Origin: Candidatus Kerfeldbacteria bacterium
Lineage (GTDB): Bacteria; Patescibacteriota; Patescibacteriia; SBBC01; CAIJZX01
DNA length: 64,000 nucleotides
Direction: 5' to 3'
NCBI GenBank assembly: GCA_963731735.1
Contig: CAVSWO010000002.1
Coordinates: 402,891 to 466,890, forward strand
How positions within the stretch are numbered: position 1 is the first letter of the stretch; each line of letters begins with the position of its first letter. Made by a program: the position numbers and the translations under genes. Below the pieces are notes generated by a model that saw nothing but the letters and a program-made list of their open reading frames with translations, was not told the DNA's origin and did no database searches. This document shows, one piece after another, positions 8,816 to 51,019 of this stretch.

Positions 8816-8844
8816 TTGACTAACGGCCAAAAAAATGATATAAT
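8816..8844 (+). promoter_or_regulatory. sigma70-type promoter, TTGACT-17-TGaTATAAT
   Basis: Consensus -35 and extended -10 elements with an ideal 17-nt spacer. The -10 ends 8 nt before the ATG at 8853, which implies a leaderless mRNA. Confidence 0.6.
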
Positions 8845-8852
8845 ACGGTCAA

Positions 8853-12956: not shown

Positions 12957-12980
12957 AAAAAGCTCCAGCTAGGCTGGAGC
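12955..12980 (-). terminator. rho-independent terminator (minus-strand operon; possibly bidirectional)
   Basis: gctccagc-tagg-ctggagc hairpin preceded by an A7 run on the plus strand. Confidence 0.6.
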
Positions 12981-12984
12981 GGGG

Positions 12985-13212
12985 TTAGGCGGCCGGTGGC
13001 AAATCATTGCGCTCCGGCGGTTCGATTACCGTCAGGTTCGGGCGGGGCGGGAACAGCGCGTGCCAGCCCTTGACCGATAATGCGATGGCGCCTTCGATCA
13101 TTCGGACCCAGAGTGGATTGGCCGGTTCAGGCACGGTTGGCCTGAGCGGAAATGGATAGCCGGCCGGGTGGGGATCCTGTTTGATTTTCTGAAGCGTTTC
13201 TCGCTCGATCAT
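12985..13212 (-). CDS. small hypothetical protein (75 aa)
   Basis: Internal Met with AGGAGGA 7 nt upstream. It does not overlap the GH1 gene, and a terminator follows immediately. Confidence 0.4.
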   Translation of the reverse strand: MIERETLQKIKQDPHPAGYPFPLRPTVPEPANPLWVRMIEGAIALSVKGWHALFPPRPNLTVIEPPERNDLPPAA

Positions 13213-13297
13213 GCGATCCTCCTGATCGTGAAATCGGTAAACGCGAATCCGTAACGTGCAAATCTGTCCGCACCCTAGCACAGCCCGCCCGAAAAAT

Positions 13298-14494
13298 TCA
13301 AGCCCCGAGTCCGCGCTGAATAATGTCGCGGAAAGCGTAGGCGCTGGGCCGTACTCGGCGTTCCAGGTTGGCGTAGTCAATCTCAATCAGGCCAAAGCGG
13401 GGATCAAATCCCTCGCGCCATTCAAAATTATCGATCAGGGACCAGTAAATATAGCCGCGGACATCAAGGCCAGAAGCCAACGCCTGCGAAACTTGGGCAA
13501 TATGGTCGCGAATATATCCGGCTCGCCGGGAATCTTCGGCATCGGCCAAACCGTTTTCCGTGATAATGATCGGCAATTGATACGCCCGCAGACTTTCCAT
13601 CACCAACCCGAGTCCCTTTGGATAAATCGTCCAGCCTAAGTCGGTGGTTGGCAGATGCGGCATCGGGGCTGGTGAAAAAAGCCTTTCAATCCCCGAGATT
13701 TTGAATTTGACCGGATGATAGAAATAATAATTCAAACCGATGAAATCGACCTGGGCATAGGTTTGATCCAAAAACCAACGGTTATGCCAATATTGGCTAA
13801 ACCAGGTGAGTCCGCGGTCGAGCAGATTGTCCGGCCGTAGGGGGGCAAAGTGGTTGAGATTATTTGCGACGCCAACTTTGGCGTGCGGAAAGCGGCGGTG
13901 AATAATTTGACTGGCCAGGCGATGCGCCGTTACAAAATTCCGAATCGCCGATCCGGAAGCCAAGAAGTTTTTCCGTTGCGGCGGCCAATAGCCGGAAATG
14001 TACCCGAGCGAGGTATAGACCGTTGGCTCGTTGATGGTTATCCAGTACGGGACCTGCGCTCCCAACTGATCAACCACCAATTCGACGAATCGCGCAAAGG
14101 CGTCAACGGTCCGCCGGTTCGTCCAGCCGCCGCGATCACGTATCCAAATTGGATTGGTGAAATGCCAAAGCGTCACGATTGGCTGGATCCCAAGTTGATG
14201 GAGACTGGTCAGCACTTCTTTGTAGTGCTTCAGCGCATCTTCGTTGATGACACCCGGGCGCGGTTCAATCCGACTCCATTCAACCGAGAGACGATGGGCA
14301 TTATGCCCAAGCTGCTTGGCTAAAGCAAAATCTTGATGAAAGCGTTCGTAGTGCCCGCTCGCACGACCCGAACGTTCGCCATGCCGAACCCGGCCAAGTT
14401 TTTCCCACTCCGACCAGTCATTATGGTTATTTCCTTCAACTTGGTGCGCGCTGGTGGCGGCGCCCCACAGAAAGTTATGTGGAAAATGTTTCAT
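13298..14494 (-). CDS. bglB: GH1 family beta-glucosidase
   Basis: FLWGAATSAHQVEG N-terminus, the ITINEP acid/base motif and the ITENG nucleophile motif. Confidence 0.9.
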   Translation of the reverse strand: MKHFPHNFLWGAATSAHQVEGNNHNDWSEWEKLGRVRHGERSGRASGHYERFHQDFALAKQLGHNAHRLSVEWSRIEPRPGVINEDALKHYKEVLTSLHQLGIQPIVTLWHFTNPIWIRDRGGWTNRRTVDAFARFVELVVDQLGAQVPYWITINEPTVYTSLGYISGYWPPQRKNFLASGSAIRNFVTAHRLASQIIHRRFPHAKVGVANNLNHFAPLRPDNLLDRGLTWFSQYWHNRWFLDQTYAQVDFIGLNYYFYHPVKFKISGIERLFSPAPMPHLPTTDLGWTIYPKGLGLVMESLRAYQLPIIITENGLADAEDSRRAGYIRDHIAQVSQALASGLDVRGYIYWSLIDNFEWREGFDPRFGLIEIDYANLERRVRPSAYAFRDIIQRGLGA

Positions 14495-15546
14495 GGCGAT
14501 AGAGACAGCATACCGTCGCGAATTGATTGGCGCAAACTTTCCGGAACAAATGAATTGTCCGCAAGCCGGTCGAGTAATTGTTCCCGGGCCGGCGAATCCA
14601 GCGGCAAAATTTGGCTCGAGGTGATCAACGTTGGGAGCAGCCTAACGCTGATCCGGTTCGCAGCGACGGAAAATTGCAGCAGTAACCCGTGGACCGTTTC
14701 ATCGGAAAAAAACTGGTCAAACAGAAAATTACCGAGCGAATAGGCGATAAACTTTTGTTGATATATTTCAAACGGTTCAACCACGTGCGGGTGAGCGCCG
14801 ATGATCAGATCCGCTCCGGCTTCAACCAGGGCGTGGGCATCATCACGCTGCCGATTGGTTACGCCCAGCTGGTATTCATTGCCCCAGTGAGCCATCACGA
14901 CCACGAACATTCCAGCCGCGTCAGCCTGGCGCACCTCGGATACGACCTTTTCCAGGCCACCGGATAATCCATGGTAGCCAATCAACGCGACTGGCTGGCC
15001 GCCAACCGTTTCGGTTACGGAATACCCCGGGGCATTCCGCGGGTCGCCAAAGGCGTGGAGACTCGCCTCGGCCAGGACCTGACGCGTATTGTCAAGACCA
15101 CGCTGACCGAAATTAAGCGTGTGATTATTCGCCAGGGATAGATCGGTAAAGCCCGCGGCATGGAGTACTGGCGCCAGGGCGGGATCAAAAGTAAATACCA
15201 GATGCGTGTCAGTTGCCACGCTCTCGGCGGTTGTAAAGGGGCCCTCAAGGTTCCCCACCACCAGATCACCCATTAAGTATTGATCGATAGTCGAGAACGG
15301 AAAAAGGGGATCGCGTCGATTCAGTATCGTCCGGACATACCGGTCGAGCATGATATCACCGACCGCGGTCAGCGACCAGGCGGAAGTTTCTAAACCAGTC
15401 GGTGAATGCATCAAGACGTTGCCAGGCACGCTGACCCGAACAGCCTGGTTCGTATTAGCTCCCGTGGTGCTCCAGTTGAGCACGATGACGGCACTCAAGC
15501 AGAGTACGATGACACTGACCACAAGCACACCGGTCGGCAATTTCAT
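14491..15546 (-). CDS. CapA/PgsA-family metallophosphatase (poly-gamma-glutamate capsule biosynthesis-like)
   Basis: GDIMLDR, NLEGP, ANNH, MAHWGNEY and GAHPHV motifs; N-terminal TM helix. ATGA overlap with bglB. I chose the MKLPTG start because ATGCTACACT lies 7 nt upstream. Confidence 0.75.
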   Translation of the reverse strand: MKLPTGVLVVSVIVLCLSAVIVLNWSTTGANTNQAVRVSVPGNVLMHSPTGLETSAWSLTAVGDIMLDRYVRTILNRRDPLFPFSTIDQYLMGDLVVGNLEGPFTTAESVATDTHLVFTFDPALAPVLHAAGFTDLSLANNHTLNFGQRGLDNTRQVLAEASLHAFGDPRNAPGYSVTETVGGQPVALIGYHGLSGGLEKVVSEVRQADAAGMFVVVMAHWGNEYQLGVTNRQRDDAHALVEAGADLIIGAHPHVVEPFEIYQQKFIAYSLGNFLFDQFFSDETVHGLLLQFSVAANRISVRLLPTLITSSQILPLDSPAREQLLDRLADNSFVPESLRQSIRDGMLSLSP

Positions 15547-15672
15547 ATTCAGTAGTGTAGCATGCTCGCGGGCGGGGATTGACAAACCTCCGAGGATCAG
15601 CTACGGTGCGGAGTTAGATTTTTGTTCTTTGCAGACCCGACGATTTTTCATAGAACGGACTGGAGGGAGCGG

Positions 15673-16209
15673 ATGCTGGCCAGACAGTATCGAACCGACT
15701 GCGGTGGCATCATCGAGGTGCATCCGAAGGCCGCATTTCTGCGATACGCCGATGAGAACTTTCGCTACTACTTAGTAGCCGCGATTCAGCGGATTCGTCT
15801 GCCGAACCAGGATCCGTTCGAAATCGAAATTGATTTCGGTGAGACGATCGGCAAATCGGAGTGTGTAGAAACTGCGGTCATTACTGAACAGACCGTCGTA
15901 GATTTCGCCATTCGGCGCGGCAAGCATTTCCCTTCGCGGATTGTGCTCCAGGATGCCAAACTGTCGGTCTCGAGCATGACCTTGATTGCGCGACGCCTTG
16001 AGCCCAAGCGCTTTCGCCTGGTCAGTGCGTATTTCGGCAGTTTGTCGAAACGGGAACCGTGGGACCGGACGCACACGGAGACCTCCCGGGCGGAAGCGAT
16101 CCAGTACTGGTGTCGTCACGCTCTGATCTATTCCCCGACCTGGATGCTGCCGCCGCAGCGGACGTCCTGGGCGAACATTCTGCAGTCTGCCTTGGAGCGC
16201 GATGCCTAG
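15673..16209 (+). CDS. hypothetical protein
   Basis: ORF runs 15622-16209. I chose the MLARQY start because GGAGGGA lies 6 nt upstream. No family recognised. Confidence 0.4.
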   Translation: MLARQYRTDCGGIIEVHPKAAFLRYADENFRYYLVAAIQRIRLPNQDPFEIEIDFGETIGKSECVETAVITEQTVVDFAIRRGKHFPSRIVLQDAKLSVSSMTLIARRLEPKRFRLVSAYFGSLSKREPWDRTHTETSRAEAIQYWCRHALIYSPTWMLPPQRTSWANILQSALERDA

Positions 16210-16253
16210 CGCTCCTTTTTCTTGGTAAAATGCTCATGCTATACTGAGCCGGT

Positions 16254-17234
16254 ATGCAGCAAGTAATTGTAACCGGCGGGGCCGGATTCATTGGGTCGAA
16301 TTTTATCCGTTTTGCACTCGATCGACACGCGGATTGGGAAATTTTGAATTTCGATAAATTGACCTACGCCGGCAACTTGGCAAATCTTCAGGATGTCGCC
16401 GATCATCCACGCTACCGCTTTATCCAGGGTGATATCGCCGATTCTGTCGCGGTAGCCAAAGTTTTTGCGGTTGGCGCGGATCTCGTTATCAATTTCGCCG
16501 CGGAATCCCATGTCGACCGTTCAATTACCAGCGGGGATGAATTTTTACGCACGAATGTGCTTGGCACCAACGTTCTGTTAGACGCTGCCCAGACTACCGG
16601 GGTGAAAAAATTCTTACATATTTCAACGGATGAGGTGTACGGCGATCTGCCGGCCGGCAGCTTTGCCAGTGAAACCGATCCGTTGCGCGCCTCAAGCCCC
16701 TATGCCGCCTCAAAAGCCGCCTCAGATTTACTCGTCTTGGCACACGCCCGGACGCATCAGTTACCGATCCTGATTACCCGCTGTACCAACAATTACGGCC
16801 CGTTCCAATTTCCGGAAAAAATGCTGCCACTCTTTACGACCAATCTGCTGCAGGGAAAAAAGGTTCCGGTCTACGGCGATGGCCGGCAAATTCGCGACTG
16901 GTTGCACGTTGAAGACCATTGCCGGGCAATTGACCTGGTCGTAAGCGATGGAACAGTCGGGGAGATATACAATGTCGGTGCGAATCATGATCCGGAGCGG
17001 ACGAATCTTGCGATTACCGAGCTTATTTTACGCGAACTCGGCCTCGATCAATCGATGATTGAGCATGTCACCGATCGACCGGGGCACGATCGTCGGTACG
17101 CCGTGGCGACTGATAAAATTGAAACCCTGGGCTGGCAGCCCCAAGTACCGATTGAGGATGGAATCCGCGCGACGGTCCGTTGGTACAAAAAACATCCTGA
17201 GTGGTGGCAGCCGTTAGTCCATCCAGCCTCATGA
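16254..17234 (+). CDS. rfbB: dTDP-glucose 4,6-dehydratase
   Basis: VTGGAGFIGSNF Rossmann motif, YAASKAASD catalytic motif, and TGCTATACT -10 element 8 nt upstream. Confidence 0.9.
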   Translation: MQQVIVTGGAGFIGSNFIRFALDRHADWEILNFDKLTYAGNLANLQDVADHPRYRFIQGDIADSVAVAKVFAVGADLVINFAAESHVDRSITSGDEFLRTNVLGTNVLLDAAQTTGVKKFLHISTDEVYGDLPAGSFASETDPLRASSPYAASKAASDLLVLAHARTHQLPILITRCTNNYGPFQFPEKMLPLFTTNLLQGKKVPVYGDGRQIRDWLHVEDHCRAIDLVVSDGTVGEIYNVGANHDPERTNLAITELILRELGLDQSMIEHVTDRPGHDRRYAVATDKIETLGWQPQVPIEDGIRATVRWYKKHPEWWQPLVHPAS

Positions 17235-18058
17235 GGGTGATGGTGATTGGAGCCAAAGGTATGCTCGGCCAAGCCACACTCGATGCTTGGTTTGATCATG
17301 ACGTCTTGGCCCTTGATTTGCCGCAGCTCGATATTACCGACCCGGTCCAAGTCAAACGCATAATTGCCAATCTTGCACCGCAGGTGGTTATCAATTGTGC
17401 TGCCTACACTGATGTGGACGGAGCCGAATCACACTATGATCTGGCCGACCGCGTTAACGGCATCGCGGTTGGATACTTGGCGCAGGCCTGTGACGCCCAT
17501 CGCATTCCACTCGTCCATATCAGTACGGATTATGTCTTCGACGGTACCGCAGAATCTGGCTATCGCGAGAGCGATCAACCGAAGCAGCCGGTCAACGCCT
17601 ATGGCCAGACAAAATTGCACGGCGAACAACAGCTGTTGCTACACGTCCGCCGTTTCTACTTGGTCCGGACTTCTTGGCTGTATGGACCGGGCGGAAAAAA
17701 TTTCGTGGGGACGATGCTGCAACTCGGCCGAACAAAACCAGCATTGCAGGTCGTGAATGATCAACACGGAAAACCAACCCTGACGCGTGACCTGGCCGGT
17801 TTTATCAAAAAGCTAGTCGTCGAAAAGGCCCCGTACGGGACATACCATGGAGTGAATGAAGGCTCGACGACCTGGTATGATTTTACGCGCGAGATTTTTC
17901 GACAGGCGGGCATCAACACGCCGGTCGAGCCGACCACCAGCGATCACTTCTCTCGACCTGCCAAACGACCGGCCTGGTCAGTTTTGCTTAATCTCAAACG
18001 ACCGCCATCGCGGCCCTGGACGGAAGCCTTGGCGTCCTATCTTGCAGAAATAGACTAA
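17231..18058 (+). CDS. rfbD: dTDP-4-dehydrorhamnose reductase
   Basis: MRVMVIGAKGMLG...INCAAYTDVD...YGQTK. ATGA overlap with rfbB. Confidence 0.85.
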   Translation: MRVMVIGAKGMLGQATLDAWFDHDVLALDLPQLDITDPVQVKRIIANLAPQVVINCAAYTDVDGAESHYDLADRVNGIAVGYLAQACDAHRIPLVHISTDYVFDGTAESGYRESDQPKQPVNAYGQTKLHGEQQLLLHVRRFYLVRTSWLYGPGGKNFVGTMLQLGRTKPALQVVNDQHGKPTLTRDLAGFIKKLVVEKAPYGTYHGVNEGSTTWYDFTREIFRQAGINTPVEPTTSDHFSRPAKRPAWSVLLNLKRPPSRPWTEALASYLAEID

Positions 18059-18080
18059 ATTCAGTACCCTCAGAACGTCT

Positions 18081-18815
18081 ATGAAAGGTATTATATTAGC
18101 CGGTGGAGCCGGGACGCGCTTACGGCCGCTGACGCTCGTATCTAGTAAGCAACTGCTGCCGGTCTATGATCAGCCGATGGTGTATTATCCCTTGCAAACC
18201 CTGCTCCAGGCCGGGATTAAGGATATTTTAATTATCGTGGCGCCCGATCGGGCCGGAGAATTCTTACGGGTCTTAGGATCAGGCAAAGAATTTGGCGCCA
18301 AATTTACCTATGAAATTCAAGACAAGCCGAACGGTTTAGCGGAAGCGTTCATCCTAGGCGCGAATTTTATTGATGAAGATAATGTGACCCTTATTCTGGG
18401 TGACAACCTCTTCCTTGGCCAAGAACAAGAAATCCTTGAAGCAATTACCAGCTTTGAACGAGGTGGCCGGGTGTTTGCGAAAGAAGTGTCTGACCCCAAG
18501 CGCTTTGGGGTGGTTGAATTTGATACTGACCGAAAGGTCATTTCGATCGAAGAAAAACCCAAGCAGCCGAAAAGCAACTACGCACTGGTTGGACTCTATG
18601 TGTTTGATCGAACGGTGGTTGAAATTGCCAGGCAACTGAAGCCGTCGGCTCGCGGCGAGTTGGAAATTACCGATGTGCATAAAGCCTACTTAGAGCGCAA
18701 TCAGCTAGACGTCCGAATGTATACCGGCCGGTGGTTGGACACCGGAACGTTTGATTCGTTACTTGAGGCCGGAAACGTGGTAGCCGACTGGAAGCGAAAT
18801 CAGTCGCCTACTTGA
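18081..18815 (+). CDS. rfbA: glucose-1-phosphate thymidylyltransferase (short form)
   Basis: MKGIILAGGAGTRLRPLT and the nucleotidyltransferase fold. 244 aa. Confidence 0.85.
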   Translation: MKGIILAGGAGTRLRPLTLVSSKQLLPVYDQPMVYYPLQTLLQAGIKDILIIVAPDRAGEFLRVLGSGKEFGAKFTYEIQDKPNGLAEAFILGANFIDEDNVTLILGDNLFLGQEQEILEAITSFERGGRVFAKEVSDPKRFGVVEFDTDRKVISIEEKPKQPKSNYALVGLYVFDRTVVEIARQLKPSARGELEITDVHKAYLERNQLDVRMYTGRWLDTGTFDSLLEAGNVVADWKRNQSPT

Positions 18816-20760
18816 TAACCTGGTAGGATCCCTTTTTATAGACCCACGATCCGCCCGGACCGGAGCTGAAAACCACACTGGCCAAACCCGTTTCGTAAGT
18901 TACCTGCGAGCCGTTTTGGAGCACAATTCGTTGGCCGGTGACTTCTTTTAAGTCCGCACTGTTCTTCAGGACGACCGATCCGTTATGCGCGTACACGACA
19001 CCCGCCGTCAGGTTGTTCGAAACATCAATCGCGCCATCAAGGTCAGAGGTCGTTTTATTCATTGATAACAGCATAATATAGGTGTCGGCACTGCTATTGC
19101 CGACCGCGTTACCGCCACTCAGGACTATGATCCGGCCGCTGTTCAAATCATCATCCGGATTATCAGCCACAATCGTTCCGCTGTCACTGCCGTAAGCCTC
19201 GGACAGGGTGATGGTGTTATCAATTGTCAGATTCCCTTTGACCCAGACTGTGCCAGTTAAGGTCACGTTGCCATTAATTAATACGTCACCATCATATTTG
19301 GCCGGTCCGATACTGCCACTCGAAATGGTACAACCGCTGGTGCAATCAATCGTATTTCCGTTGGCGGCCTGAGCCTCCATTTGACCTATCTGGGCGGTGG
19401 TTAAGGGGAAGCCAACCGGTTCGAGCGTGGCATTACCGGCATGACAATACGGGCCGGTATCATAGGTGGTGTTATTATTGTCGCACGGGATTGGCGCCGT
19501 GCTGCTGTCGGTGCAGGTTTCGGTGCCCGATCCAGTTGTGACTGCGCCAAGGATGTGTTGGTAACAGGCGTGTTGCTTGATATTGGTCGAATCTATGGTT
19601 TCAGAATACGCGTTACCACCGATGGCGTAACTTCCGTCGATGCAGAGTACCCCCGTGCATCCGATCTTTAAGGTTGGTGTTACACCACCCATAAACACCT
19701 GGAATGCGATATCGCAACCAGAACCCGAACAGGCGTTGGTCAGACTGGTCAGGCTACCGCCGATTTTGGCCTGACCCGATGGGTAGCTGCTGTTATCTGC
19801 ATCACGGACGGATTCCCAATATTTTGATCCGTCGGCGCCGCTGGTCTTCAAAACTAACCAATAGGTTTGCCCAGCCGTTAAGATTGGATTAATTGCCGGG
19901 GTAAAGGTGACAGTCGTCCAGCCAGAATTTTCCCAGCCCGCATACTCGACGATCGGATTTTGGAGAGTAATACCTCCGCCAGTTAGCTCACTTCCCGGCT
20001 GGCCGGAATTATCATCATACAAATAGACAGTGATAGTTGATGTCACCAACGAACTGACTTTTGCGACTTTAAACCCGAGGCTGTAAATTTTGTCAGACAC
20101 CGAGGGCACGAAACTTTGCGCCAAATAATCATCGCTTGAACCGTTAGTCCCAAAGTTCAAAGTATTGGTGGCGGGATCAGGATCGGCGGTGGCATCGATG
20201 GTCGGCGAGCCTTTGGTCAGCACCACATCACCGCTGACGGCACTTTTATCGCCGGTTACCGGGCCGCTCGAGAAAACATTACCGGTAATCAAGTTATTGT
20301 TTTTCATATCAAGCCCGCCAATTCCCGCCTGCAAGCCGTAAGAAAATGAGACATCAGCGGTTGAGGTGGTCAGCTGAACCTGCAAATGTTGGGTTGAGGC
20401 GCTAATGCCGCCCCCGACAGATCCATAGGCATCAATAGTCCGGTTGTTACCACTGCCGCTGACGGTAGTCGAAAAACTTCCGCGCCCGAACGCAACGTTG
20501 CTCTCTCCAACAAAACTTGGGTTATTCGAACAGTCAGTCGTATTGGAAGGATTATTCAGACACCAAACCGCTTTTTCAATCCCGGCCTCGGCAATGCGGG
20601 TCGCTTCTTGATCGTTGACGCGGCGGCTGGTGGTCTGGACATTCGCGTTGGAACGATCGAAAGTAGTAGCCACTAAAATTCCGATCACCGTCAAAAAGAT
20701 GATACTAAAAATCAGGGTCGAACCTGAGCGATGATTACGGATGGTTGCGGAATGTGGCAT
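18808..20760 (-). CDS. large pilus-associated protein with PilX-like N-terminal hydrophobic segment (type IV pilus tip/minor component candidate)
   Basis: N-terminal GSTLIFSIIFLTVIGILVATTF followed by 600 aa of Gly/Thr/Ser-rich beta-rich sequence. Adjacent to two pilin-like genes. Confidence 0.45.
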   Translation of the reverse strand: MPHSATIRNHRSGSTLIFSIIFLTVIGILVATTFDRSNANVQTTSRRVNDQEATRIAEAGIEKAVWCLNNPSNTTDCSNNPSFVGESNVAFGRGSFSTTVSGSGNNRTIDAYGSVGGGISASTQHLQVQLTTSTADVSFSYGLQAGIGGLDMKNNNLITGNVFSSGPVTGDKSAVSGDVVLTKGSPTIDATADPDPATNTLNFGTNGSSDDYLAQSFVPSVSDKIYSLGFKVAKVSSLVTSTITVYLYDDNSGQPGSELTGGGITLQNPIVEYAGWENSGWTTVTFTPAINPILTAGQTYWLVLKTSGADGSKYWESVRDADNSSYPSGQAKIGGSLTSLTNACSGSGCDIAFQVFMGGVTPTLKIGCTGVLCIDGSYAIGGNAYSETIDSTNIKQHACYQHILGAVTTGSGTETCTDSSTAPIPCDNNNTTYDTGPYCHAGNATLEPVGFPLTTAQIGQMEAQAANGNTIDCTSGCTISSGSIGPAKYDGDVLINGNVTLTGTVWVKGNLTIDNTITLSEAYGSDSGTIVADNPDDDLNSGRIIVLSGGNAVGNSSADTYIMLLSMNKTTSDLDGAIDVSNNLTAGVVYAHNGSVVLKNSADLKEVTGQRIVLQNGSQVTYETGLASVVFSSGPGGSWVYKKGSYQVIK

Positions 20761-43001: not shown

Positions 43002-44003
43002 ATGGAAATTCGTGTCCTGACGCATCCTGACCAAGGGCGAGTCTTGCTGGCGGCTCAACCGCTCCAGCCGTTTTTACAGTCCTGGGCCTGGGGGGAGTTT
43101 CAAGCAGCCGTTGGCCGTCGTGTTTGGCGACTTGGCGCGTGGGAACAGGACCGACTCCTGGCTATGGCGACGGTGATTGAACACCAGCTGGTCTTGGGAC
43201 GCACGTATTTATATTGTCCGCGCGGACCGATCGCGGCTGATGCGCAGTCGCTTGCAACACTCTTGGCGGAGCTGCGGAAGCTGGCTGACCGGGAAGGGGC
43301 GATGTATCTCAAAGTTGATCCACCCAACTATGCGTTTCCATTCGACCCAAAAAGTCTATCAGACTTTACCCCTGGCACTACCTTGCAACCGCGGCAAACC
43401 CTAATCATTGAAACGAAACGCAAGCCCGAAGATTTACTTTCGGCCATGCACCAAAAAACCCGATACAATATCCGATTGGCGGAGAAGCGTGGCGTGAACA
43501 TACAGTGGAGCACGAATGATAGCGCCTTCGCCACCTTTCTTGATCTGATCCACCAAACCTACGCGCGCCAAGGTATCCGACTGCATCCGGATAAGTATTA
43601 TCAGCACATGTTTACGGCCCTCCGAACGGCCGGACTGGTCGAAATCGGAACGGCCGAATACAACGGCCAACCAGTGGCGGCGAACCTGGTCATTTGGCAC
43701 GATCAAACAGCCACCTATCTACACGGTGGATCCAGTCAGGCGCACAAAGAGGTGATGGCGCCGCATTTGTTGCAATGGTCAACCATGCAAAGAGCCCACC
43801 AGCGCGGTTTTTCCGAATACGATTTGTGGGGAATCGCACCCACAGATCAACCATCGCACAAGTGGTCGGGTGTGACGCGCTTCAAAAAAGGCCTTGGTGG
43901 CCATACCGTGGTATTTCCACCTGCCATGAATGCCGTGCTGCAGCCGGGTTGGTATTGGGCTTATCGGTATGCAAAACGGATCCGCGGCGGCGTGGACCAA
44001 TAA
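43002..44003 (+). CDS. FemAB-family (aminoacyl-tRNA-dependent peptidoglycan branch) transferase-like protein
   Basis: FemAB-family length; YLHGGSSQAHKEVMAPHLLQWSTMQRAHQRGFSEYDLWGI. Confidence 0.55.
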   Translation: MEIRVLTHPDQGRVLLAAQPLQPFLQSWAWGEFQAAVGRRVWRLGAWEQDRLLAMATVIEHQLVLGRTYLYCPRGPIAADAQSLATLLAELRKLADREGAMYLKVDPPNYAFPFDPKSLSDFTPGTTLQPRQTLIIETKRKPEDLLSAMHQKTRYNIRLAEKRGVNIQWSTNDSAFATFLDLIHQTYARQGIRLHPDKYYQHMFTALRTAGLVEIGTAEYNGQPVAANLVIWHDQTATYLHGGSSQAHKEVMAPHLLQWSTMQRAHQRGFSEYDLWGIAPTDQPSHKWSGVTRFKKGLGGHTVVFPPAMNAVLQPGWYWAYRYAKRIRGGVDQ

Positions 44004-44127
44004 AACCTTCCCACCATCGAAAAGTTTGGTGATGGTGCCCTTCCACGGTCTTGGAACTGGGCTATAGGGGCATTATAAGGTGGCCTGACCCCCATATACT
44101 AGACACAAGAGTTCAGATTATTTACCC

Positions 44128-44397
44128 TTGTGTCCTATGCCCAAGAAACAATATCGTATTGCTCCGGAGGTGAAGGCGGATATTCTCCGCAAGATTAAAG
44201 AAGATGGTGTCTCCGTCGCCCAAGCGGCCAAAGATCACGGTGTGGCTGAAGGGACGATCTACGGCTGGCTCGGGAAGGGTGTTGAAGGAGCCCCAACGAT
44301 TGCAGACATCATTCGCCTCAAGCGAGAGAACAAACAATTGCTTGAGCTGGTGGGTGAACTGACCGTCAAACTCTCCACCGCCCAAAAAAAGAATTGA
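44128..44397 (+). CDS. IS3-family transposase OrfA (HTH)
   Basis: HTH IKEDGVSVAQAAKDHGVAEGTIYGW, a leucine-zipper-like C-terminus, and a sequence end at the AAAAAAAG frameshift site. Confidence 0.8.
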   Translation: MCPMPKKQYRIAPEVKADILRKIKEDGVSVAQAAKDHGVAEGTIYGWLGKGVEGAPTIADIIRLKRENKQLLELVGELTVKLSTAQKKN

Positions 44398-45218
44398 CCG
44401 TTGGCTCGACGAACAAAACCACCCTGGCCCGCAGCCTGGGAGTGTCCCGTGCGTCACTGTATTACGTTTCCAGACAGGATCAAAAAGACTGGACCCTGAA
44501 GCGCCGCATCGAGGATGTTCTGAACCAATATCCCAGTTATGGTTACCGCCGCATGGCGCTGGCCCTTGAGGTGAACAAGAAACGGACCCAGCGGGTGATG
44601 CACCATTTCGGTCTCCATGCCTATCGCCGCCGAGGCCGACGACACCGGAAAACAAAGGCCAAAAGCCTCATCGTCTATCCCAACCTACTTCGGGAAACGA
44701 CCCCACGCTACCCCGGCCACGTCTGGGCAGCGGATTTTACCTATCTCTGGCACCGGCACCGATTCATCTACCTGGCCACAGTTATGGATCTCTACACTCG
44801 GGAGATCGTGGGCTGGTCCGTGATGACGACCCACACGGTGCCGCTCATTCTCCAAGCACTATTCGTGGGACTGCACGGCCATGCCCGTCCGGCCATCTTT
44901 CATTCGGACAACGGGCGGGAATACCTTTCCCAGGCATTCACTGGCGTCCTGCATGACCTGGGGACGTCCATTTCCCGTTCCCGGCCTGGGTGTCCGTGGG
45001 AGAACGGCTACCAGGAATCCTTCTACTCGCAGTTCAAGGTGGAGCTGGGCGATCCGAACCGGTTTTCCTCACTCGGCACATTGGTCTATGAAATCTACAA
45101 AACCATCCATACGTACAACCACTCCCGGATTCACTCAGCCCTTAAAATGCCGCCGCTACTCTTTCTTCAGCAACACCAAATGATTCCAGAAAAAGTGTCT
45201 TACGTTCGGGGGTCTTGA
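44394..45218 (+). CDS. IS3-family transposase OrfB (DDE integrase core)
   Basis: The rve-fold motifs WAADFTYL, HSDNGREY and PWENGYQESF. Confidence 0.8.
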   Translation: MTVGSTNKTTLARSLGVSRASLYYVSRQDQKDWTLKRRIEDVLNQYPSYGYRRMALALEVNKKRTQRVMHHFGLHAYRRRGRRHRKTKAKSLIVYPNLLRETTPRYPGHVWAADFTYLWHRHRFIYLATVMDLYTREIVGWSVMTTHTVPLILQALFVGLHGHARPAIFHSDNGREYLSQAFTGVLHDLGTSISRSRPGCPWENGYQESFYSQFKVELGDPNRFSSLGTLVYEIYKTIHTYNHSRIHSALKMPPLLFLQQHQMIPEKVSYVRGS

Positions 45219-45269
45219 CATGTCTTTAGCTGTTTTGGTAAAACCTCTTGTTGGTAGGCCAGCGATGGT

Positions 45270-46133
45270 CTAGTCATAAGTTATATCTCCGAGTTTAATC
45301 GCGGGAACTACCCGTCCTTCCCCGTATTCCCCGTATGGTGTATCATCTTTTTTCCCATGGCTATCAGAGCCCCCCGTATAAGACAGACCGCGCTCTCTAA
45401 CAATATTATTCAGTTCCTCCGTTTCTTGGTCATTTGTGTGAGCATGATATACCTCAACACCCGTACACCCACCCTGAATCAATCGTAGTAGATTCGTCGA
45501 GTCTAGCTTTCTTGAGGAAAAGCTTACCTTCACTCGTGGGTGTGCAACTATTAAGTCACCAACGAGTGGCTTAATATGTTCCTTTATCCAATCAAAAGTT
45601 ACGCCGCTCCTTGGCACATGACACGGCTTACCTGGTGCCTGGTAGGCAGTATAAAACTCCTCAGGACCAAGAAGCGTTCCGGTGTTGCTGAGAAGTTTTT
45701 GATGGTTTGTTGGGTTTCGGTAAACATCTCTTGCAACGATATAACCAACCGGCAACTTGGGATCGACCTGCAAACTATCGTTGACCTGAAATCCTTGGTG
45801 TTGAAATGCTTCTGTAGTTTTAATCAACTCTTGTATTTTCATGGAATCAACGATGTTTTTTCGACGCAATAAAACATTTCGCATAGGTTCGAGCTCGAAA
45901 CCATAAGCAATCAAATGGGTTTCATACTCTTCAAATAATGCGGTTAGCTCTACGCCATTAATTACATTGATTCCGGTTCCTGCTAGGGCGCTTTTAAATG
46001 CCAGAACTCCATCTACCGTATCGTGGTCAGTGAGGGCGCAGGTCCTCATTTTTGTTACACGAATTCGGTTAGCGACCTCCTCAGGAGTCAGCTTCCCATC
46101 CGAAATAGAAGAATGAAAATGTAGGTCAATCAT
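45270..46133 (-). CDS. PHP-domain metal-dependent phosphoesterase
   Basis: MIDLHFHSSISDG...LTDHDTVDG...GGSDSHG motifs. Confidence 0.75.
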   Translation of the reverse strand: MIDLHFHSSISDGKLTPEEVANRIRVTKMRTCALTDHDTVDGVLAFKSALAGTGINVINGVELTALFEEYETHLIAYGFELEPMRNVLLRRKNIVDSMKIQELIKTTEAFQHQGFQVNDSLQVDPKLPVGYIVARDVYRNPTNHQKLLSNTGTLLGPEEFYTAYQAPGKPCHVPRSGVTFDWIKEHIKPLVGDLIVAHPRVKVSFSSRKLDSTNLLRLIQGGCTGVEVYHAHTNDQETEELNNIVRERGLSYTGGSDSHGKKDDTPYGEYGEGRVVPAIKLGDITYD

Positions 46134-47127
46134 ATTTTGTAATGCCTAAATCCTGTAGTTCCCGTTGAATTTTAGATTGAACAACTTCTACTTGTCTTAT
46201 GCCATCCTGAGAAGAGGCAGCGGTGGAGTTTTTATGAATATAGCCGTACCGCCACAGCAACGAATTGACCCGAACAAGGTCGTGGTAAATACTTAGTCGG
46301 TCTTCAAGGCCTGAATCTGGATTGACATGCTCATATGTTTGCAGAAAATCTCGAGCCTGATCCGAATTGAGATCACACTTGAGAAAGAATTTTGCAATAT
46401 CCATGGCAGGATCTCCGATCGATGCCGATCCCCAGTCGATGAGTGTAACTGATTCCTTCTTTGGATCCCATAAAATGTTTGACGGGTTGAGGTCAAAATG
46501 AATAAGTGAAAAACTCTCACCGGCGAAAGCGTTGGGGGATTTACCAGCAAGTGTTTTATTATTGTTAATTACTCCTAACAGGGAGCTCCGGAGTTTTTCA
46601 GGAAGGCCCGGTGTAGTTTGCGCACGCTCAGAGAGATCTCCGATTCCATCAAGTAGGAAGTCGTGTTGGTTACCAGCCTTTCTGTTCTCCAGAGGCTTTC
46701 CATATTTATTAAAAATTGGTTGGTGTATTTCCCCCAGTGCTTGAGCAATAACTTGAATGAGTTTGCCGTTAAATTCTTTCGGGGGTTCACCTAGCGCCTT
46801 CGTCTCAACCAAAGTTTCTTGACTCGGAATGAACGCCCTTAGTTCTGGACTGTGTGGGGAGCCAGTTCGCCTCAAGAGTCTTAAGATTACGTGCTCGCGG
46901 TCAATGCTTTGATCCTGTCCGACTTCTTTACCATGCCTTTTTAAAACCAAGTCCTCTCCATTTTGTCGGGTCACAAAAGTCGTGGCAACCGTCCCGTGAT
47001 TTTCTGGTGATTCGTGGAAAATCTTTTCTAGTGATTCTTCATTGAGCCCGATACGACCCAAATCATCTTTTTCTCTTTCGGAGAGAGCCGAATGGGGTTC
47101 TTGCTCTTGGGCAGAGAATTCAGACAT
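46126..47127 (-). CDS. APH/choline-kinase-family phosphotransferase
   Basis: LIHFDLNPSNILW (Brenner motif) and LIDWGSASIGDPAMDIAKF (DxD). 8-nt overlap with the PHP gene. Confidence 0.7.
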   Translation of the reverse strand: MSEFSAQEQEPHSALSEREKDDLGRIGLNEESLEKIFHESPENHGTVATTFVTRQNGEDLVLKRHGKEVGQDQSIDREHVILRLLRRTGSPHSPELRAFIPSQETLVETKALGEPPKEFNGKLIQVIAQALGEIHQPIFNKYGKPLENRKAGNQHDFLLDGIGDLSERAQTTPGLPEKLRSSLLGVINNNKTLAGKSPNAFAGESFSLIHFDLNPSNILWDPKKESVTLIDWGSASIGDPAMDIAKFFLKCDLNSDQARDFLQTYEHVNPDSGLEDRLSIYHDLVRVNSLLWRYGYIHKNSTAASSQDGIRQVEVVQSKIQRELQDLGITKYD

Positions 47128-47214
47128 ATCAACCCCAGTATAGCTGTAATTACTCGAAAAATCAATTTGTAATTGCTTGATTGTTCCAAGAAAATATGAG
47201 AATATTTAGCCATT

Positions 47215-48159
47215 ATGATCCTAGAGAAGAAAACTGTTTTGGTGACAGGTGGGGCAGGGTTTATCGGCCACCATCTTTGTTCAGCGTTACTGTCCAGAGG
47301 CTATAAGGTCCTTTGTCTGGATAATTTTTCTAGTGGGACACCTCAGAACATCAGCCACTTGAAAGGCCATAGAGCATTCGGCCTCATTCGCCACGATATC
47401 GCTAAGCCGATAAGCATACGAGGAAAGATACATTCGATATATAATCTTGCTTCCCCAGCTTCCCCGGTTGATTATCAACGAAGGCCGCTTGACACGCTTA
47501 GAGCTAACACACTTGGTATCTTCAATGTGGCATTTTTGGCCCTGAAAAAGAGGGCAGACTTATTTCAAGCATCTACTTCGGAAATTTACGGCGACCCTCT
47601 CGTCCACCCGCAGATAGAAAGATACTTTGGCAACGTAAACCATCTTGGTTGGAGAGGGTGCTACGAAGAGGGCAAGCGCGTGGCTGAGACAATACTATTT
47701 ACCTTCTACCAAACACAGAATTTAAAACTCCAGATCGTCCGTATTTTTAATACATACGGTCCGGGCATGCGAGCGAATGATGGCCGAGTGATACCTTCCT
47801 TCATTGTTGCAGCAAAACACAACAAACCCATCAGGATCTATGGAGGAAGCCAAACGCGTTCCTTCTGCTACGTTGATGATCTGGTGCTTGGTTTATTGCG
47901 ACTCCAAAATCTGAAACAGTATGCTGGTCCAATTAATTTAGGAAACCCTGAAGAGGCTACTATGTCGGAACTCGCATCGAAGATATTGCTTATGACTAAT
48001 TCCAAAAGCAAAATTACTACCTTACCTAGTCAACTGGATGATCCCAAAAAGCGACGGCCAAATATTGATAAGGCAAAAAAATTGCTACACTGGATACCAA
48101 AAATTCCGTTAGAAAAGGGTTTACAGTCTACCCTTGACGGCCTTATCACGTCTTCATGA
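47215..48159 (+). CDS. NAD-dependent epimerase/dehydratase, UDP-glucuronate decarboxylase (UXS)-like
   Basis: VLVTGGAGFIGHHL, DNFSSG and a YxxxK-type catalytic region. Confidence 0.7.
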   Translation: MILEKKTVLVTGGAGFIGHHLCSALLSRGYKVLCLDNFSSGTPQNISHLKGHRAFGLIRHDIAKPISIRGKIHSIYNLASPASPVDYQRRPLDTLRANTLGIFNVAFLALKKRADLFQASTSEIYGDPLVHPQIERYFGNVNHLGWRGCYEEGKRVAETILFTFYQTQNLKLQIVRIFNTYGPGMRANDGRVIPSFIVAAKHNKPIRIYGGSQTRSFCYVDDLVLGLLRLQNLKQYAGPINLGNPEEATMSELASKILLMTNSKSKITTLPSQLDDPKKRRPNIDKAKKLLHWIPKIPLEKGLQSTLDGLITSS

Positions 48160-48626
48160 GTAAGAAAAAGTTAGCCTATACTCCCACAACCGACGCCGGT
48201 GGCGTTATTGTCCGTAAACACAACGGCCACATTGAGGTTCTACTCTTTCAAGATCAAGAATATGATGACTGGAAACTCCCTAAGGGGCACGCTGAGCCCA
48301 ACGAGACACTCGAGCAAACCGCTCAAAGGGAAATTCTTGAAGAGGTTGGTGTGACAAACGTGTACCTTCACGGGCTTCTCGACACACTTGATCTGAATGA
48401 ACTGGGCATCAAGCATAAATTCAAAGACGAGGTGACGCGATACAACAGGTTCCGGAAAATCGCCTTGGGCAAGAGCAAAGAAAAGGAATCCGGGGAAACC
48501 TTCGATATGAAGGCCTATGCCGTCTACCTTCTGACCGAGGGATCAATAGCGGAGAAACGAGAATTACTAGCGAATCTCAAGAGTAGGCTGACGATGAAAA
48601 ATAAAGTGCTGGCGCTAGAGAAATAA
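48156..48626 (+). CDS. NUDIX hydrolase
   Basis: Nudix box GHAEPNETLEQTAQREILEEVGV. ATGA overlap with the epimerase gene. Confidence 0.8.
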   Translation: MSKKKLAYTPTTDAGGVIVRKHNGHIEVLLFQDQEYDDWKLPKGHAEPNETLEQTAQREILEEVGVTNVYLHGLLDTLDLNELGIKHKFKDEVTRYNRFRKIALGKSKEKESGETFDMKAYAVYLLTEGSIAEKRELLANLKSRLTMKNKVLALEK

Positions 48627-48634
48627 TAAACTAC

Positions 48635-49351
48635 TTATTCGGCAGCACTCATAGAGATGTTTCTTTGATACATTTTTGCTTCTCCTGTTTCAGGATCCTG
48701 TACAACGTTCTCGACTTTCTTCTTCTCCGTATCCCAGGACACGGGTTCATCCAATGAATAGGCATAAAATGGGCGGATGCCTCTACCGGCGAATTCCAAC
48801 GTTCTGAAAACATAGTTCAGGAATGAACCGGTATACCGATACCGACGAATACAGCCTTCTAACTGTCGTTGAGCTTCTTCTTCGTACCCTTGCCAACGAT
48901 TGAGAAAGTAATACTTTTCCAGCCAGTCGCTGATAGTATAAGTGACCAACTTGATGACCTCGTTTTTGGCCGAGAGATTACCACGCTGGGCTAAGCGCAC
49001 CAGCGTGATGCTAATAATGTCTCTGGTGCGCCGGTCAGTCAGGTCTTGCGGAGCGATAAACACATAAAGCTTATTCCGATATTTACTTGTAACTGCATCA
49101 ACCTCTACAATGTTCTCATACGGGATTGGATTCTGACGTGACCGTCCTGGAGCCCAGCGTCGTTGGTACTTCCACTCCAAGGCATAGGTGACTGTATCCC
49201 AATCAATGCCGCCAGTTTCCGCTCTTACATTTCTCCAAATGAATCGGTAACAATGGGGGGCGTATTTTAATATCCAAGAACTATTGAATGACAGAGGGCT
49301 TTTCTTTACTAACAATTTGTTGAGAGTTATAATCACATCATCGAAATGCAT
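48635..49351 (-). CDS. hypothetical protein (island-borne)
   Basis: 238-aa ORF in low-GC DNA. No family recognised. Confidence 0.4.
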   Translation of the reverse strand: MHFDDVIITLNKLLVKKSPLSFNSSWILKYAPHCYRFIWRNVRAETGGIDWDTVTYALEWKYQRRWAPGRSRQNPIPYENIVEVDAVTSKYRNKLYVFIAPQDLTDRRTRDIISITLVRLAQRGNLSAKNEVIKLVTYTISDWLEKYYFLNRWQGYEEEAQRQLEGCIRRYRYTGSFLNYVFRTLEFAGRGIRPFYAYSLDEPVSWDTEKKKVENVVQDPETGEAKMYQRNISMSAAE

Positions 49352-49365
49352 TGATTCATTGTATC

Positions 49366-49396
49366 GTAAAAACAGTCGCGATTATGCCACTGTTTT
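49366..49396. terminator. 11-bp stem hairpin downstream of tRNA-Arg
   Basis: gtaaaaacagt-cgcgattatgcc-actgtttttac. Confidence 0.4.
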
Positions 49397-49467
49397 TACT
49401 CAAGGGCTGAGGCACGTCGGTCGCGCAAGCAAGTCGACTACCACGGTCTCTCGATACTAAATGTTGT

Positions 49468-49542
49468 TGGTGCCCCCCAGAGGAATCGAACCTCTATTAC
49501 GAGATCCGGAATCTCGCGTCCTATCCGTTGAACGAGGGAGGC
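49468..49542 (-). tRNA. tRNA-Arg (anticodon CCG), CCA encoded
   Basis: Reverse complement GCCTCCC-TC-GTTC..GGAC-G-CGAGA-TTCCGGA-TCTCG-TAAT-AGAGG-TTCGATT-CCTCT-GGGGGGC-A-CCA. Confidence 0.8.
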
Positions 49543-49612
49543 ACGCTGGCGGCGTCACTCTACCGTATTGGTTAATTTCTGCCAAGTAAAAAAAAGTACG
49601 GCCGAAGCCGTA

Positions 49613-49843
49613 CTAGGAAGCCCGTTGGATGCCGAGCATGGCAAAATCCTCGGGGAGGAGCGGCGGCGAAGTGCCGTCGCAGACTTTGACGTGCGCATCG
49701 AACGCACCGGCGATGATCTTGCGGTTGCAAGCCGGACAGGTCGTGCAGCAGGGAGTGAGGTGGGCGACTGATTGCCCGAATTCGGGATGGTGACAATCGC
49801 AATCACACTCGATCAAGGAACGAACGCAGGTACTAGACATCAT
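49613..49843 (-). CDS. small Cys-rich (9 Cys) putative metal-binding protein
   Basis: AAGGAG lies 6 nt upstream of ATGATG. ...IECDCDCHHPEFG...PCCTTCPACN...VKVCDG. Confidence 0.45.
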   Translation of the reverse strand: MMSSTCVRSLIECDCDCHHPEFGQSVAHLTPCCTTCPACNRKIIAGAFDAHVKVCDGTSPPLLPEDFAMLGIQRAS

Positions 49844-50261: not shown

Positions 50262-50507
50262 ATGGGTAGCCATATGCTGACAATTCACGGCCACAAGGTC
50301 TACTGCGATTCAGACCACGAGTATCACGGACTGAAGTATTTGATGTACGACTTGGATGAAGACTCGGTTAAAGAACTCTTTGCCCAGGTTGAACATGACC
50401 GCGAGGTGCCGTTCGAAGACAAAGAGCATCGCAAGTTCGCACTGGTCGACGGAGAAAACGGATCGTTTACCGTAGTCAGCCATGGACACGCCAGCGGCTG
50501 GTTCTAA
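50262..50507 (+). CDS. small paralog family protein, copy 1
   Basis: GGGGAGTAGGA SD. LTIHGHKVY...ELFAQVEH... is shared with copies 2-4. Confidence 0.5.
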   Translation: MGSHMLTIHGHKVYCDSDHEYHGLKYLMYDLDEDSVKELFAQVEHDREVPFEDKEHRKFALVDGENGSFTVVSHGHASGWF

Positions 50508-50727
50508 CGTTCGGTTACACGTTCAAGGCCACACCGTGGTGGGAACCGTTGAAGCCGTACGGCATTTACGTCGACTCTCTTCCATGTCATTGAGTCAACT
50601 TTTCTTACAAGCCAAAGAACACGGCGCTTCAACCGTCACGATTGATGGCGCGGCTTGGACGCTGAATCGGATGCCGGACCATACTTTTACCTTGACCCAA
50701 GGCGCCGCCCACCAGCAGATTCTCTAA
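50482..50727 (+). CDS. small paralog family protein, copy 2
   Basis: LHVQGHTVVGTVEAVRHLRRLS..LSQLFLQAKEHGASTVTIDG. Overlaps copy 1 by 26 nt. Confidence 0.45.
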   Translation: MDTPAAGSNVRLHVQGHTVVGTVEAVRHLRRLSSMSLSQLFLQAKEHGASTVTIDGAAWTLNRMPDHTFTLTQGAAHQQIL

Positions 50728-50767
50728 GGCTCGACGAATGCGGTGAGAGTTGCTAGACTAGCCCCCG

Positions 50768-51019
50768 ATGGCACTTGAACGTAAAGCGGTTCCGGAGCTG
50801 ATCAACGTCCACCAGGTCTATGCCCATAAAGACGTGATTCGGTTTCTCAAGAACTCTGACAAAGAATTTGTGGAAGGACTTTTTTATCAGGCCAAACGCT
50901 ATGGACGAGCTGAATTTGAATTTAGCGATGTGTCGTATGTGATTCTTCGCAACCGTGACTTTTCGTTTACGATTGAAGAAAATCCCGATACCGATCTTTC
51001 AACTGAGGCCTTCTCCTAA
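50768..51019 (+). CDS. small paralog family protein, copy 3
   Basis: LINVHQVYAHKDVIRFLKNSDKEFVEGLFYQAKRYGRAEFEF. Confidence 0.5.
   Translation: MALERKAVPELINVHQVYAHKDVIRFLKNSDKEFVEGLFYQAKRYGRAEFEFSDVSYVILRNRDFSFTIEENPDTDLSTEAFS

Follow-up and report, generated by a model that had tools for sequence, protein, structure and literature searches.

Layout and composition of the locus

A low-GC island lies between a FemAB gene (43002-44003) and an intact tRNA-Arg(CCG) gene (49468-49542, minus strand; ARAGORN) of a Candidatus Kerfeldbacteria contig (CAVSWO010000002.1, assembly GCA_963731735.1); we analysed a 64-kb stretch of this contig, here called the window. Reading from FemAB towards the tRNA, the island contains an insertion sequence (IS) of the IS3 family, genes for a PHP-domain phosphoesterase and an APH-fold kinase, a UDP-glucuronate decarboxylase (UXS) gene, an open reading frame (ORF) that joins the start of a NUDIX gene to the end of a large serine recombinase (LSR) gene, and a gene for a conserved 238-aa protein; the 3' end of the tRNA faces the island, as a first-pass annotation of the same DNA had stated. 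We read the island as an immobilised, IS-invaded and decayed remnant of an LSR integrative element at tRNA-Arg(CCG) with a mosaic cargo, an interpretation drawn from sequence comparison to which we give a probability of roughly 80%.

The GC content of 45219-49467 is 44.6%, compared with 53.2% for the rest of the window; measured against equal-length windows elsewhere in the 64 kb this corresponds to z = -5.6, and the segment falls below every one of those windows, the lowest of which has 50.1%. The window as a whole averages 52.7%, with 55-56% in the left flank and 49-53% in the right flank, so that the dip described earlier (about 45-48%) stands while the flanks are at 49-56% and not near the 58% given with it. 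GC at third codon positions (GC3) is 0.40-0.48 in the island genes versus a host mean of 0.58 ± 0.04 (25 host ORFs). The codon-usage check suggested along with GC is less clear-cut: the distance of the island genes, 0.14-0.17 against 0.104 ± 0.022 for the host, reaches the upper tail only.

An empty site and related elements define the putative junctions

A search with FemAB led to genomes of the Patescibacteria, or Candidate Phyla Radiation (CPR), and the closest relative found, L003, has a FemAB that is 58% identical. The gene order in L003 is UvrB, FG-GAP, RuvA, FemAB, 22 nt, tRNA-Arg(CCG, minus strand), three ORFs of ~81 aa and a Mur ligase. This order recurs in the window, with an extra 5.46 kb between FemAB and the tRNA, and the two tRNA genes are 97% identical. 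Since the gene order is common to both and FemAB stands 22 nt from the tRNA in L003, the ~5.4 kb is taken to be an insertion. A comparison of relatives at this tRNA had been suggested as a check, and at the syntenic site of L003 the island is absent.

The most informative relative of the island itself is found in L070, a Kerfeldbacteria metagenome-assembled genome whose FemAB is only 40% identical to that of the window. Here a 3.1-kb element (L070 11894-15029), with 43-47% GC in a host of 54-56% GC, is bounded at both ends by the 11-nt repeat GGGGCACCAGC and encodes an intact LSR of 444 aa, which is the sole recognisable recombinase of the element and whose gene stops 129 nt short of the 3' end of a tRNA-Arg(CCG). 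This LSR has Resolvase, Recombinase and Zn_ribbon_recom domains, an architecture that is likewise complete in the LSR of a second relative, L083 (92% identical to that of L070); the LSR relatives match PHROG 95, 'integrase', with E 6e-60. The tRNA-proximal 50 nt of the L070 element match window 49418-49467 and its distal 48 nt match 44033-44080, the latter (L070 14982-15029) with 83% identity over 48 nt and E 2.7e-6.

These comparisons bring out both putative att junctions of the island. The last 8 nt of the tRNA gene, GGGCACCA (49468-49475), form the proximal copy of the predicted att core, and the distal copy is at 44033-44040, where the plus strand reads TGGTGCCC, the reverse complement of GGGCACCA; it lies 30 nt past the FemAB stop codon, compared with 22 nt for the tRNA end in L003. 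The core has only two plus-strand copies in the 64-kb window, at 44033 and 49468, both at predicted junctions, so the distal boundary of the island carries the tRNA-end repeat expected of a tRNA-associated integrative element, in the form of these 8 bp. On the element side of the distal junction is the predicted P arm (44041-44080), which resembles a degenerate tRNA T-arm plus acceptor; on the element side of the tRNA-proximal junction is the predicted P' arm (49418-49467, minus strand), homologous to L070 11894-11943 and L083 9885-9934 and containing the motif TTAGTATCGA at 49451-49460. A repeat search confined to the window had given chance-level repeats only, and the core emerged after comparison with L003 and L070; the first-pass view that no clear att repeat was present does not hold, given both arms and the core. 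Because both ends match the ends of the L070 element and the core is repeated at 44033 and 49468, the predicted integrative element is the segment 44033-49475, which starts upstream of the IS and not at 44088, where the region had been placed.

The ends of the island and its LSR fragment are ~80% identical in nucleotides, and 93-94% identical in protein, to elements in hosts whose FemAB is 40% identical. Together with the empty site in L003, this upholds the earlier proposal that the island was acquired horizontally at tRNA-Arg. It also bears on the idea that the region is ancestral and was lost from L003, its low GC being a local compositional heterogeneity, which we regard as extremely improbable. 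The distance of L003 speaks in its favour, as do a GC content that varies from 49% to 57% across the window and a codon-usage distance of the island genes that exceeds the host range only partly; against it stand a GC content under that of every other equal-length window, the similarity of ends and LSR fragment to elements in such distant hosts, and L070, in which the same low-GC block, arms and tRNA occur in a different gene arrangement.

Two further arrangements in the relatives are of note. At L070 11706-11893, two tandem copies of tRNA-Arg(CCG) with differing 5' acceptor halves precede the LSR element, which suggests repeated integration or an element-borne tRNA segment. At L083 9857-9954 (and in L084), a distal-type arm, the core and a proximal arm are joined directly without a tRNA, and GC steps at this junction from ~60% to ~46%; the joined arms could mark an attP-like junction or a tandem pair of islands. 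The high-GC side of the L083 junction carries DNA methylase, DUF87 and AAA_16 genes.

A recombinase remnant fused to a NUDIX gene

The plus-strand ORF at 48156-48626, which the first-pass annotation had called a NUDIX hydrolase, is a chimera, i.e. NUDIX(1 to ~73)::LSR(361-441), in which ...HGLL is followed directly by DTLDLNELG.... Its first part (48156-48374, plus strand) is a NUDIX 5' remnant of codons 1 to ~73 with an intact Nudix box, and its second part (48375-48626, plus strand) consists of the last 82 LSR codons and the stop codon, fused in frame. We assign the two parts because the corresponding window segments match the 3' end of the L083 LSR gene and the L083 NUDIX gene separately: in a tblastn search, residues 360-441 of the L083 LSR match window 48375-48620 with 94% amino acid identity in the frame of the NUDIX ORF, and the L083 NUDIX gene (L083 17913-18100), which lies 6.9 kb further along and collinear, matches window 48186-48373 with 74% nucleotide identity. 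The remnant has ~93% amino acid identity to the L070 LSR. The match to L083 extends well beyond the LSR; window 48378-49476 is 80% identical to L083 9876-10975 over 1102 nt that span the LSR 3' end, the 238-aa gene with its upstream region and 9 nt of the tRNA.

Of the 134 positions of the Pfam NUDIX profile, the window protein covers 6-68 and the 147-aa L083 homolog covers 7-128; a complete Nudix fold (~130 aa) is thus lacking in the window, where the box is present and the C-terminal half is replaced by the LSR tail. What survives of the original NUDIX call is the Nudix-box ORF and its 4-nt overlap with UXS; the protein is truncated at about residue 74 and continues as an LSR C-terminus. This same tail corrects the statement that the island has no integrase, although an intact integrase gene is absent and the tail is the sole remnant: the fragment, equivalent to residues 360-441, lies past the Zn ribbon and does not include the Resolvase, Recombinase and Zn-ribbon domains. 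Apart from the IS transposase, no other recombinase was found among the island ORFs (ORF translations, Pfam).

Compared with L083 or L070, the proportion of nonsynonymous differences (pN) is 0.04 for the LSR fragment, where synonymous sites are saturated, and pN is 0.04-0.07, again with saturated synonymous sites, in the comparisons of the window with L083 or L070. Synonymous saturation together with low pN points to element lineages that are old and under purifying selection.

The insertion sequence

The IS3-family IS occupies about 44081-45220 on the plus strand, its left end thus lying before 44088, with orfA at 44137-44397 (Pfam HTH_Tnp_1) and orfB at 44394-45218 in the -1 frame (NCBIfam transpos_IS3, 225 bits against a cutoff of 160; Pfam rve). 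The slippery site AAAAAAAG, of the A7G type, is at 44384-44391, so the orfA/orfB organisation of IS3 elements is present and the original identification of an IS with a preserved A7G site is borne out. The terminal inverted repeats are imperfect (20 nt, 70%), the GC content is a host-like 54.7%, and no further copy of the IS was found in the window or in the fetched loci.

The left end of the IS is set by the stop of L070 homology at 44080 and by the overlap of two Logan contigs of the same strain (L001 and L002) at 44081-44110, as a graph branch would be expected at the first base of the IS; weak similarity to L070 continues past the insertion point. Because L070 homology ends at 44080, where the IS starts, and because its GC is host-like, the IS is regarded as secondary, i.e. 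a later insertion within the island, 40 nt from the far att core. It had been described as flanking the island; it lies inside. The short-read assembly of the same strain breaks at the left end of the IS and reads through the right end, which hints at a second, partial IS copy or at a left-flank polymorphism in the population.

That the IS itself brought the DNA in, by composite or one-ended transposition or by IS-mediated capture with the tRNA being incidental, is in our judgement highly improbable. An intact IS does abut the low-GC DNA, no target-site duplication was found for it, so that it may have rearranged its surroundings, and the Logan assembly does break at its left end. Yet the IS is a single copy, with neither a second copy nor a solo inverted repeat at the tRNA side, and its GC is like that of the host and unlike that of the island. 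Homology to the distal end of the L070 element, which has no IS, covers the 48 nt that precede the IS on the FemAB side and stops exactly at the IS; and the tRNA-side junction is common to L070 and L083, both of which lack an IS.

Proposed history of the island

We propose that site-specific recombination placed an element in the chromosome at the very 3' end of tRNA-Arg(CCG), and that this element then decayed. The enzyme would have been an element-encoded LSR, its gene close to the tRNA-proximal end as in the relatives, and recombination between attP and the tRNA 3' end would, again judging from the relatives, have left the tRNA intact. The 8-bp core GGGCACCA would have remained at both junctions, flanked on the element side by the P' arm (49418-49467) or by the P arm (44041-80). 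Comparison with the L083 arrangement shows a later deletion of ~6.9 kb, which removed the first ~359 LSR codons and fused the remaining 82 in frame to the first ~73 NUDIX codons. Having no recombinase of its own, the island can now move only with the help in trans of a related LSR. Comparison with the relatives also shows that a resident IS3-family IS of host-like GC inserted 40 nt inside the distal end.

Several points count against this history. The sole empty site is that of L003, a distant genome, and the synteny taken alone would also be compatible with loss of the island there. The cargo at 45221-48155 has no counterpart in L070 or L083, and its membership of the element rests on its position between the arms and its uniformly low GC. 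The LSR is taken as the inserting enzyme from adjacency and the conserved junction architecture. With just 8 bp, the core repeat of the window owes its weight to the homology of the arms. No target-site duplication was found at any plausible boundary of the IS, which may therefore have gone along with a rearrangement at the distal end. Finally, the LSR fragment still looks constrained, so that either the deletion would be recent relative to the divergence of the elements or the chimeric ORF would itself be constrained or active.

Related recombinases at tRNA 3' ends

LSR relatives with 45-64% identity are encoded on 33 IMG/VR contigs. In 13 of 13 tRNA-containing loci the first tRNA is downstream of the LSR and on the opposite strand, and in none is it upstream; in all 13 the tRNA 3' end faces the LSR 3' end. 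The motif TTWKTAYCGR begins 8-10 nt past the tRNA end in eight loci, where 0.027 would be expected, these being 8 of the 37 hits in a scan of 447 kb: the window and L070 (tRNA-Arg), L089 (tRNA-Trp), L175 (tRNA-Asp), and L177, L179, L186 and L188 (tRNA-Ser). The remaining occurrences of the motif were rejected as junctions, being chance matches with no tRNA-like context. Distal tRNA-end repeats were also sought in the viral loci, where most contigs are too short; L070 aside, a terminal 10-mer turned up in L195 only and is no more than suggestive.

In L089, one of the eight loci with the motif, an element at 7169-20708 begins at tRNA-Trp, has this junction motif and carries two LSRs, a ParB-like gene and a terminase, together with a diversity-generating retroelement (bAvd plus reverse transcriptase); it is likely a CPR prophage.

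These data allow a further alternative to be weighed, namely that the island was a classical tyrosine-integrase tRNA island that lost its integrase, the LSR fragment being unrelated debris or cargo. Integration at tRNA 3' ends is indeed a trait typical of tyrosine-integrase elements: in the survey of Mageeney et al. (2020), a tRNA or tmRNA was used by 44.5% of these versus 4.9% of serine-integrase elements (PMC7192596). No remnant of a tyrosine integrase is present among the island ORFs, however, the LSR is the only recognisable recombinase in the 3.1-kb element of L070, and the LSR-tRNA geometry and junction motif recur in 8 to 13 independent loci at different tRNAs. We consider this alternative very unlikely.

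More tentatively, and at a little under even odds, we suggest that the LSR remnant comes from an undescribed clade of Patescibacteria and phage LSRs that would systematically use tRNA 3' ends (Arg, Trp, Asp, Ser and others) as attB. In their attP, the P' half-site would be common to the clade (TTWKTAYCGR, at 8-10 nt from the tRNA end), and the P arm would imitate the T-arm and acceptor of the tRNA. Since both att junctions look intact, an incoming phage with a related LSR could on this proposal possibly still excise or move the island in trans, which would make it a non-autonomous, satellite-like element. The putative tRNA-targeting clade is the moderately novel part of our findings; the island itself is ordinary. 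In the survey by Mageeney et al., 14 of 297 serine-integrase elements were predicted at a tRNA or tmRNA, a use unreported before for which 'experimental proof will be required' (PMC7192596), and in the large LSR survey of Durrant et al. the word tRNA does not occur (PMC10083194). Our literature search found no paper on CPR serine-integrase elements. The loci described here thus offer several independent natural cases of serine integrases at tRNA 3' ends, with a common junction architecture, of a kind that the available literature treats as rare and unproven. If confirmed, they would mean that tRNA targeting is not confined to tyrosine integrases, would document gene flow among distant CPR lineages with tiny genomes, and would provide compact LSRs (~445 aa) with defined natural att sites.

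Comparison with known systems

The island resembles tRNA-gene islands of the Islander/TIGER type in its insertion at a tRNA 3' end with the tRNA preserved, its short tRNA-end repeat at the distal boundary, an integrase gene by the tRNA-proximal junction (in the intact relatives), its atypical GC and its variable cargo. It differs from them in that their integrases are tyrosine integrases and the recombinase associated here is an LSR, and in that the core is 8-11 bp and an arm of the element mimics the tRNA T-arm plus acceptor, with no long tRNA duplication. To LSR elements (the phiC31, Bxb1, A118 and SPbeta prophages, SCCmec ccr, Tn4451/Tn5397) it is linked by the Resolvase-Recombinase-Zn-ribbon recombinase of ~445 aa in its relatives, by the position of the recombinase gene at the element edge, by a short identity core and by relatives in phage contigs. 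Unlike those elements, the window keeps just the last 82 LSR codons, and the relatives sit at tRNAs; to our knowledge, the LSRs known so far target protein-coding genes or intergenic sites.

With grounded or cryptic prophages and decayed islands it shares a deleted integration module, retained att junctions, an inserted IS and a mosaic cargo. In contrast to cryptic prophages, it has no phage structural genes; structural and packaging genes were sought among the island ORFs, whose PHROG hits are generic only. The intact relative in L070, 3.1 kb long, resembles a minimal integrative element or a satellite more than it does a prophage.

Accessory genes of the island

The first-pass gene calls for the PHP and APH-fold kinase genes with their 8-nt overlap, the UXS-like short-chain dehydrogenase/reductase and a 238-aa ORF with no Pfam hit were all reproduced. 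The PHP gene (45270-46133, minus strand) encodes a TrpH/YciV-like phosphoesterase of 287 aa (Pfam PHP, E 5.5e-14) with the metal-ligand motifs DLHFHS, TDHD and GGSDSHG. Its nearest types are a nucleoside 3',5'-bisphosphate phosphatase and a relative of RNase AM (PDB matches 2yb1 and 7ug9), and it falls short of the NCBIfam TrpH/YciV equivalog models, with 99 bits for a cutoff of 400 and 87.5 bits for a cutoff of 375. In searches, ~70 clusters at 39-47% identity are followed by a drop to at most 33%, and the protein is predicted to belong to a CPR-specific subfamily distinct from general TrpH-like proteins. Another member of this subfamily, at L208 5579-7595, has two NUDIX genes in front of it in place of the kinase; PHP-NUDIX adjacency thus occurs elsewhere, in another form.

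The kinase gene (46126-47127, minus strand), which overlaps the PHP gene by 8 nt, encodes an APH-fold (eukaryotic-like) small-molecule kinase of 333 aa (Pfam APH, E 1.2e-15) with the motifs HFDLNPSN and IDWG. A homolog search returned only four relatives, all with at most 41% identity. None of the NCBIfam equivalogs is reached at its cutoff, APH(3') scoring 29 bits (cutoff 205) and the Mph models at most 21 bits (cutoffs of at least 500), and the resistance function put forward earlier finds no support in these scores.

The kinase-PHP pair is also present in L092, L094, L209 and one contig of JGI 3300072015. Elsewhere it forms the first two genes of a five-gene CPR operon that continues with a ~276-aa protein lacking Pfam domains, a Pol-beta-type nucleotidyltransferase and a GT4 glycosyltransferase (L092 4758-9299, L094 5241-9698, L209 6036-10484). 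UXS and NUDIX are not part of this operon, of which the window holds the first two genes only. In L094 the pair is inside a glycan cluster. With low confidence, we suggest that the five-gene operon activates a sugar or alcohol via a phosphorylated intermediate, so that it can be transferred to a glycoconjugate of the envelope. On its own, the two-gene fragment may be of little use. The module follows the same order of enzyme types as activation pathways of the nucleoside diphosphate (NDP)-heptose type, and the nearest characterised relatives of its PHP protein act on bisphosphates. Unlike in those pathways, the kinase has the APH fold and not GHMP or PfkB, the phosphatase is PHP and not HAD, and the nucleotidyltransferase is of the Pol-beta type, so that the families are unrelated; and the window holds two of the five module genes.

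The UXS gene (47215-48159, plus strand; 314 aa) is apparently intact. In a phmmer search it matches structures of human UXS1 with E 4e-94 (residues 4-306), the next family following at 1e-28, and the motifs GGAGFIG, STSEIYGDP and YEEGK are present, as expected of UXS sequences; the UDP-xylose synthase is probably functional. In L083 the relative of the NUDIX gene is not adjacent to UXS, and a 182-aa gene is in that position.

It has been suggested that the kinase, phosphatase, NUDIX and NDP-sugar genes make up one module. This is contradicted by the truncation of the NUDIX gene, by the place that the kinase-PHP pair elsewhere has in another operon and by the L083 NUDIX gene, which is not beside UXS. 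A stronger version, in which the five genes are a working, selected cassette for sugar or small-molecule modification or for resistance and the mobile features are secondary, could draw on the facts that all island ORFs are open, that two pairs overlap in an operon-like manner, that catalytic motifs are kept in UXS, kinase and PHP, and that the chimeric ORF is in frame with its LSR part conserved at the protein level. We hold it to be unlikely: half of the NUDIX fold is missing, the kinase-PHP pair is without its three usual partner genes, the UXS-NUDIX adjacency is unconserved, no resistance-type equivalog is matched, and the gene set has been drawn from no fewer than three source contexts. 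The five accessory genes should not be taken for a single acquired pathway; among them are a fusion pseudogene, an operon fragment of two genes and a mobile-element gene.

The last of these, the 238-aa gene (48635-49351, minus strand), is convergent with the LSR remnant and is an element-associated accessory gene. Its product has at least 478 homologs at 57-86% identity, and the ratio of nonsynonymous to synonymous substitution rates (dN/dS) against L083 is 0.05. The gene adjoins an LSR in L083-85, L089-91, L098 and L198, and the family is absent from IMG/VR apart from L198. A strict pairing with the LSR was rejected, as an LSR is missing from the vicinity in most of the metagenomic loci that have sufficient flanking sequence. 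The gene was likewise rejected as an integration target of the LSR, for in the window and in L083 it is inside the element, between core and LSR, and L070 has the same ends without the gene. Searches of Pfam, NCBIfam and PHROG give no hit; the matches from Pfam scans with 27 members of the family and from a profile search of PDB stayed at chance level, and Foldseek found no match with E < 1 in PDB or BFVD. A weak structural resemblance to sigma-factor region 2 leads us to suggest, at low confidence, that the protein may be a regulator.

Genes flanking the tRNA

Three small ORFs in tandem, of 81, 81 and 83 aa (50262-51019), lie between the tRNA and the Mur ligase of the window. Their number and position are conserved in L003 (11444-12207), and the same ORFs on the Logan contig L001 have no family assignment. 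Just past the 5' side of tRNA-Arg is a cysteine-rich ORF of 76 aa (49613-49843, minus strand), accompanied by a strong terminator-like hairpin at 49595-49614.

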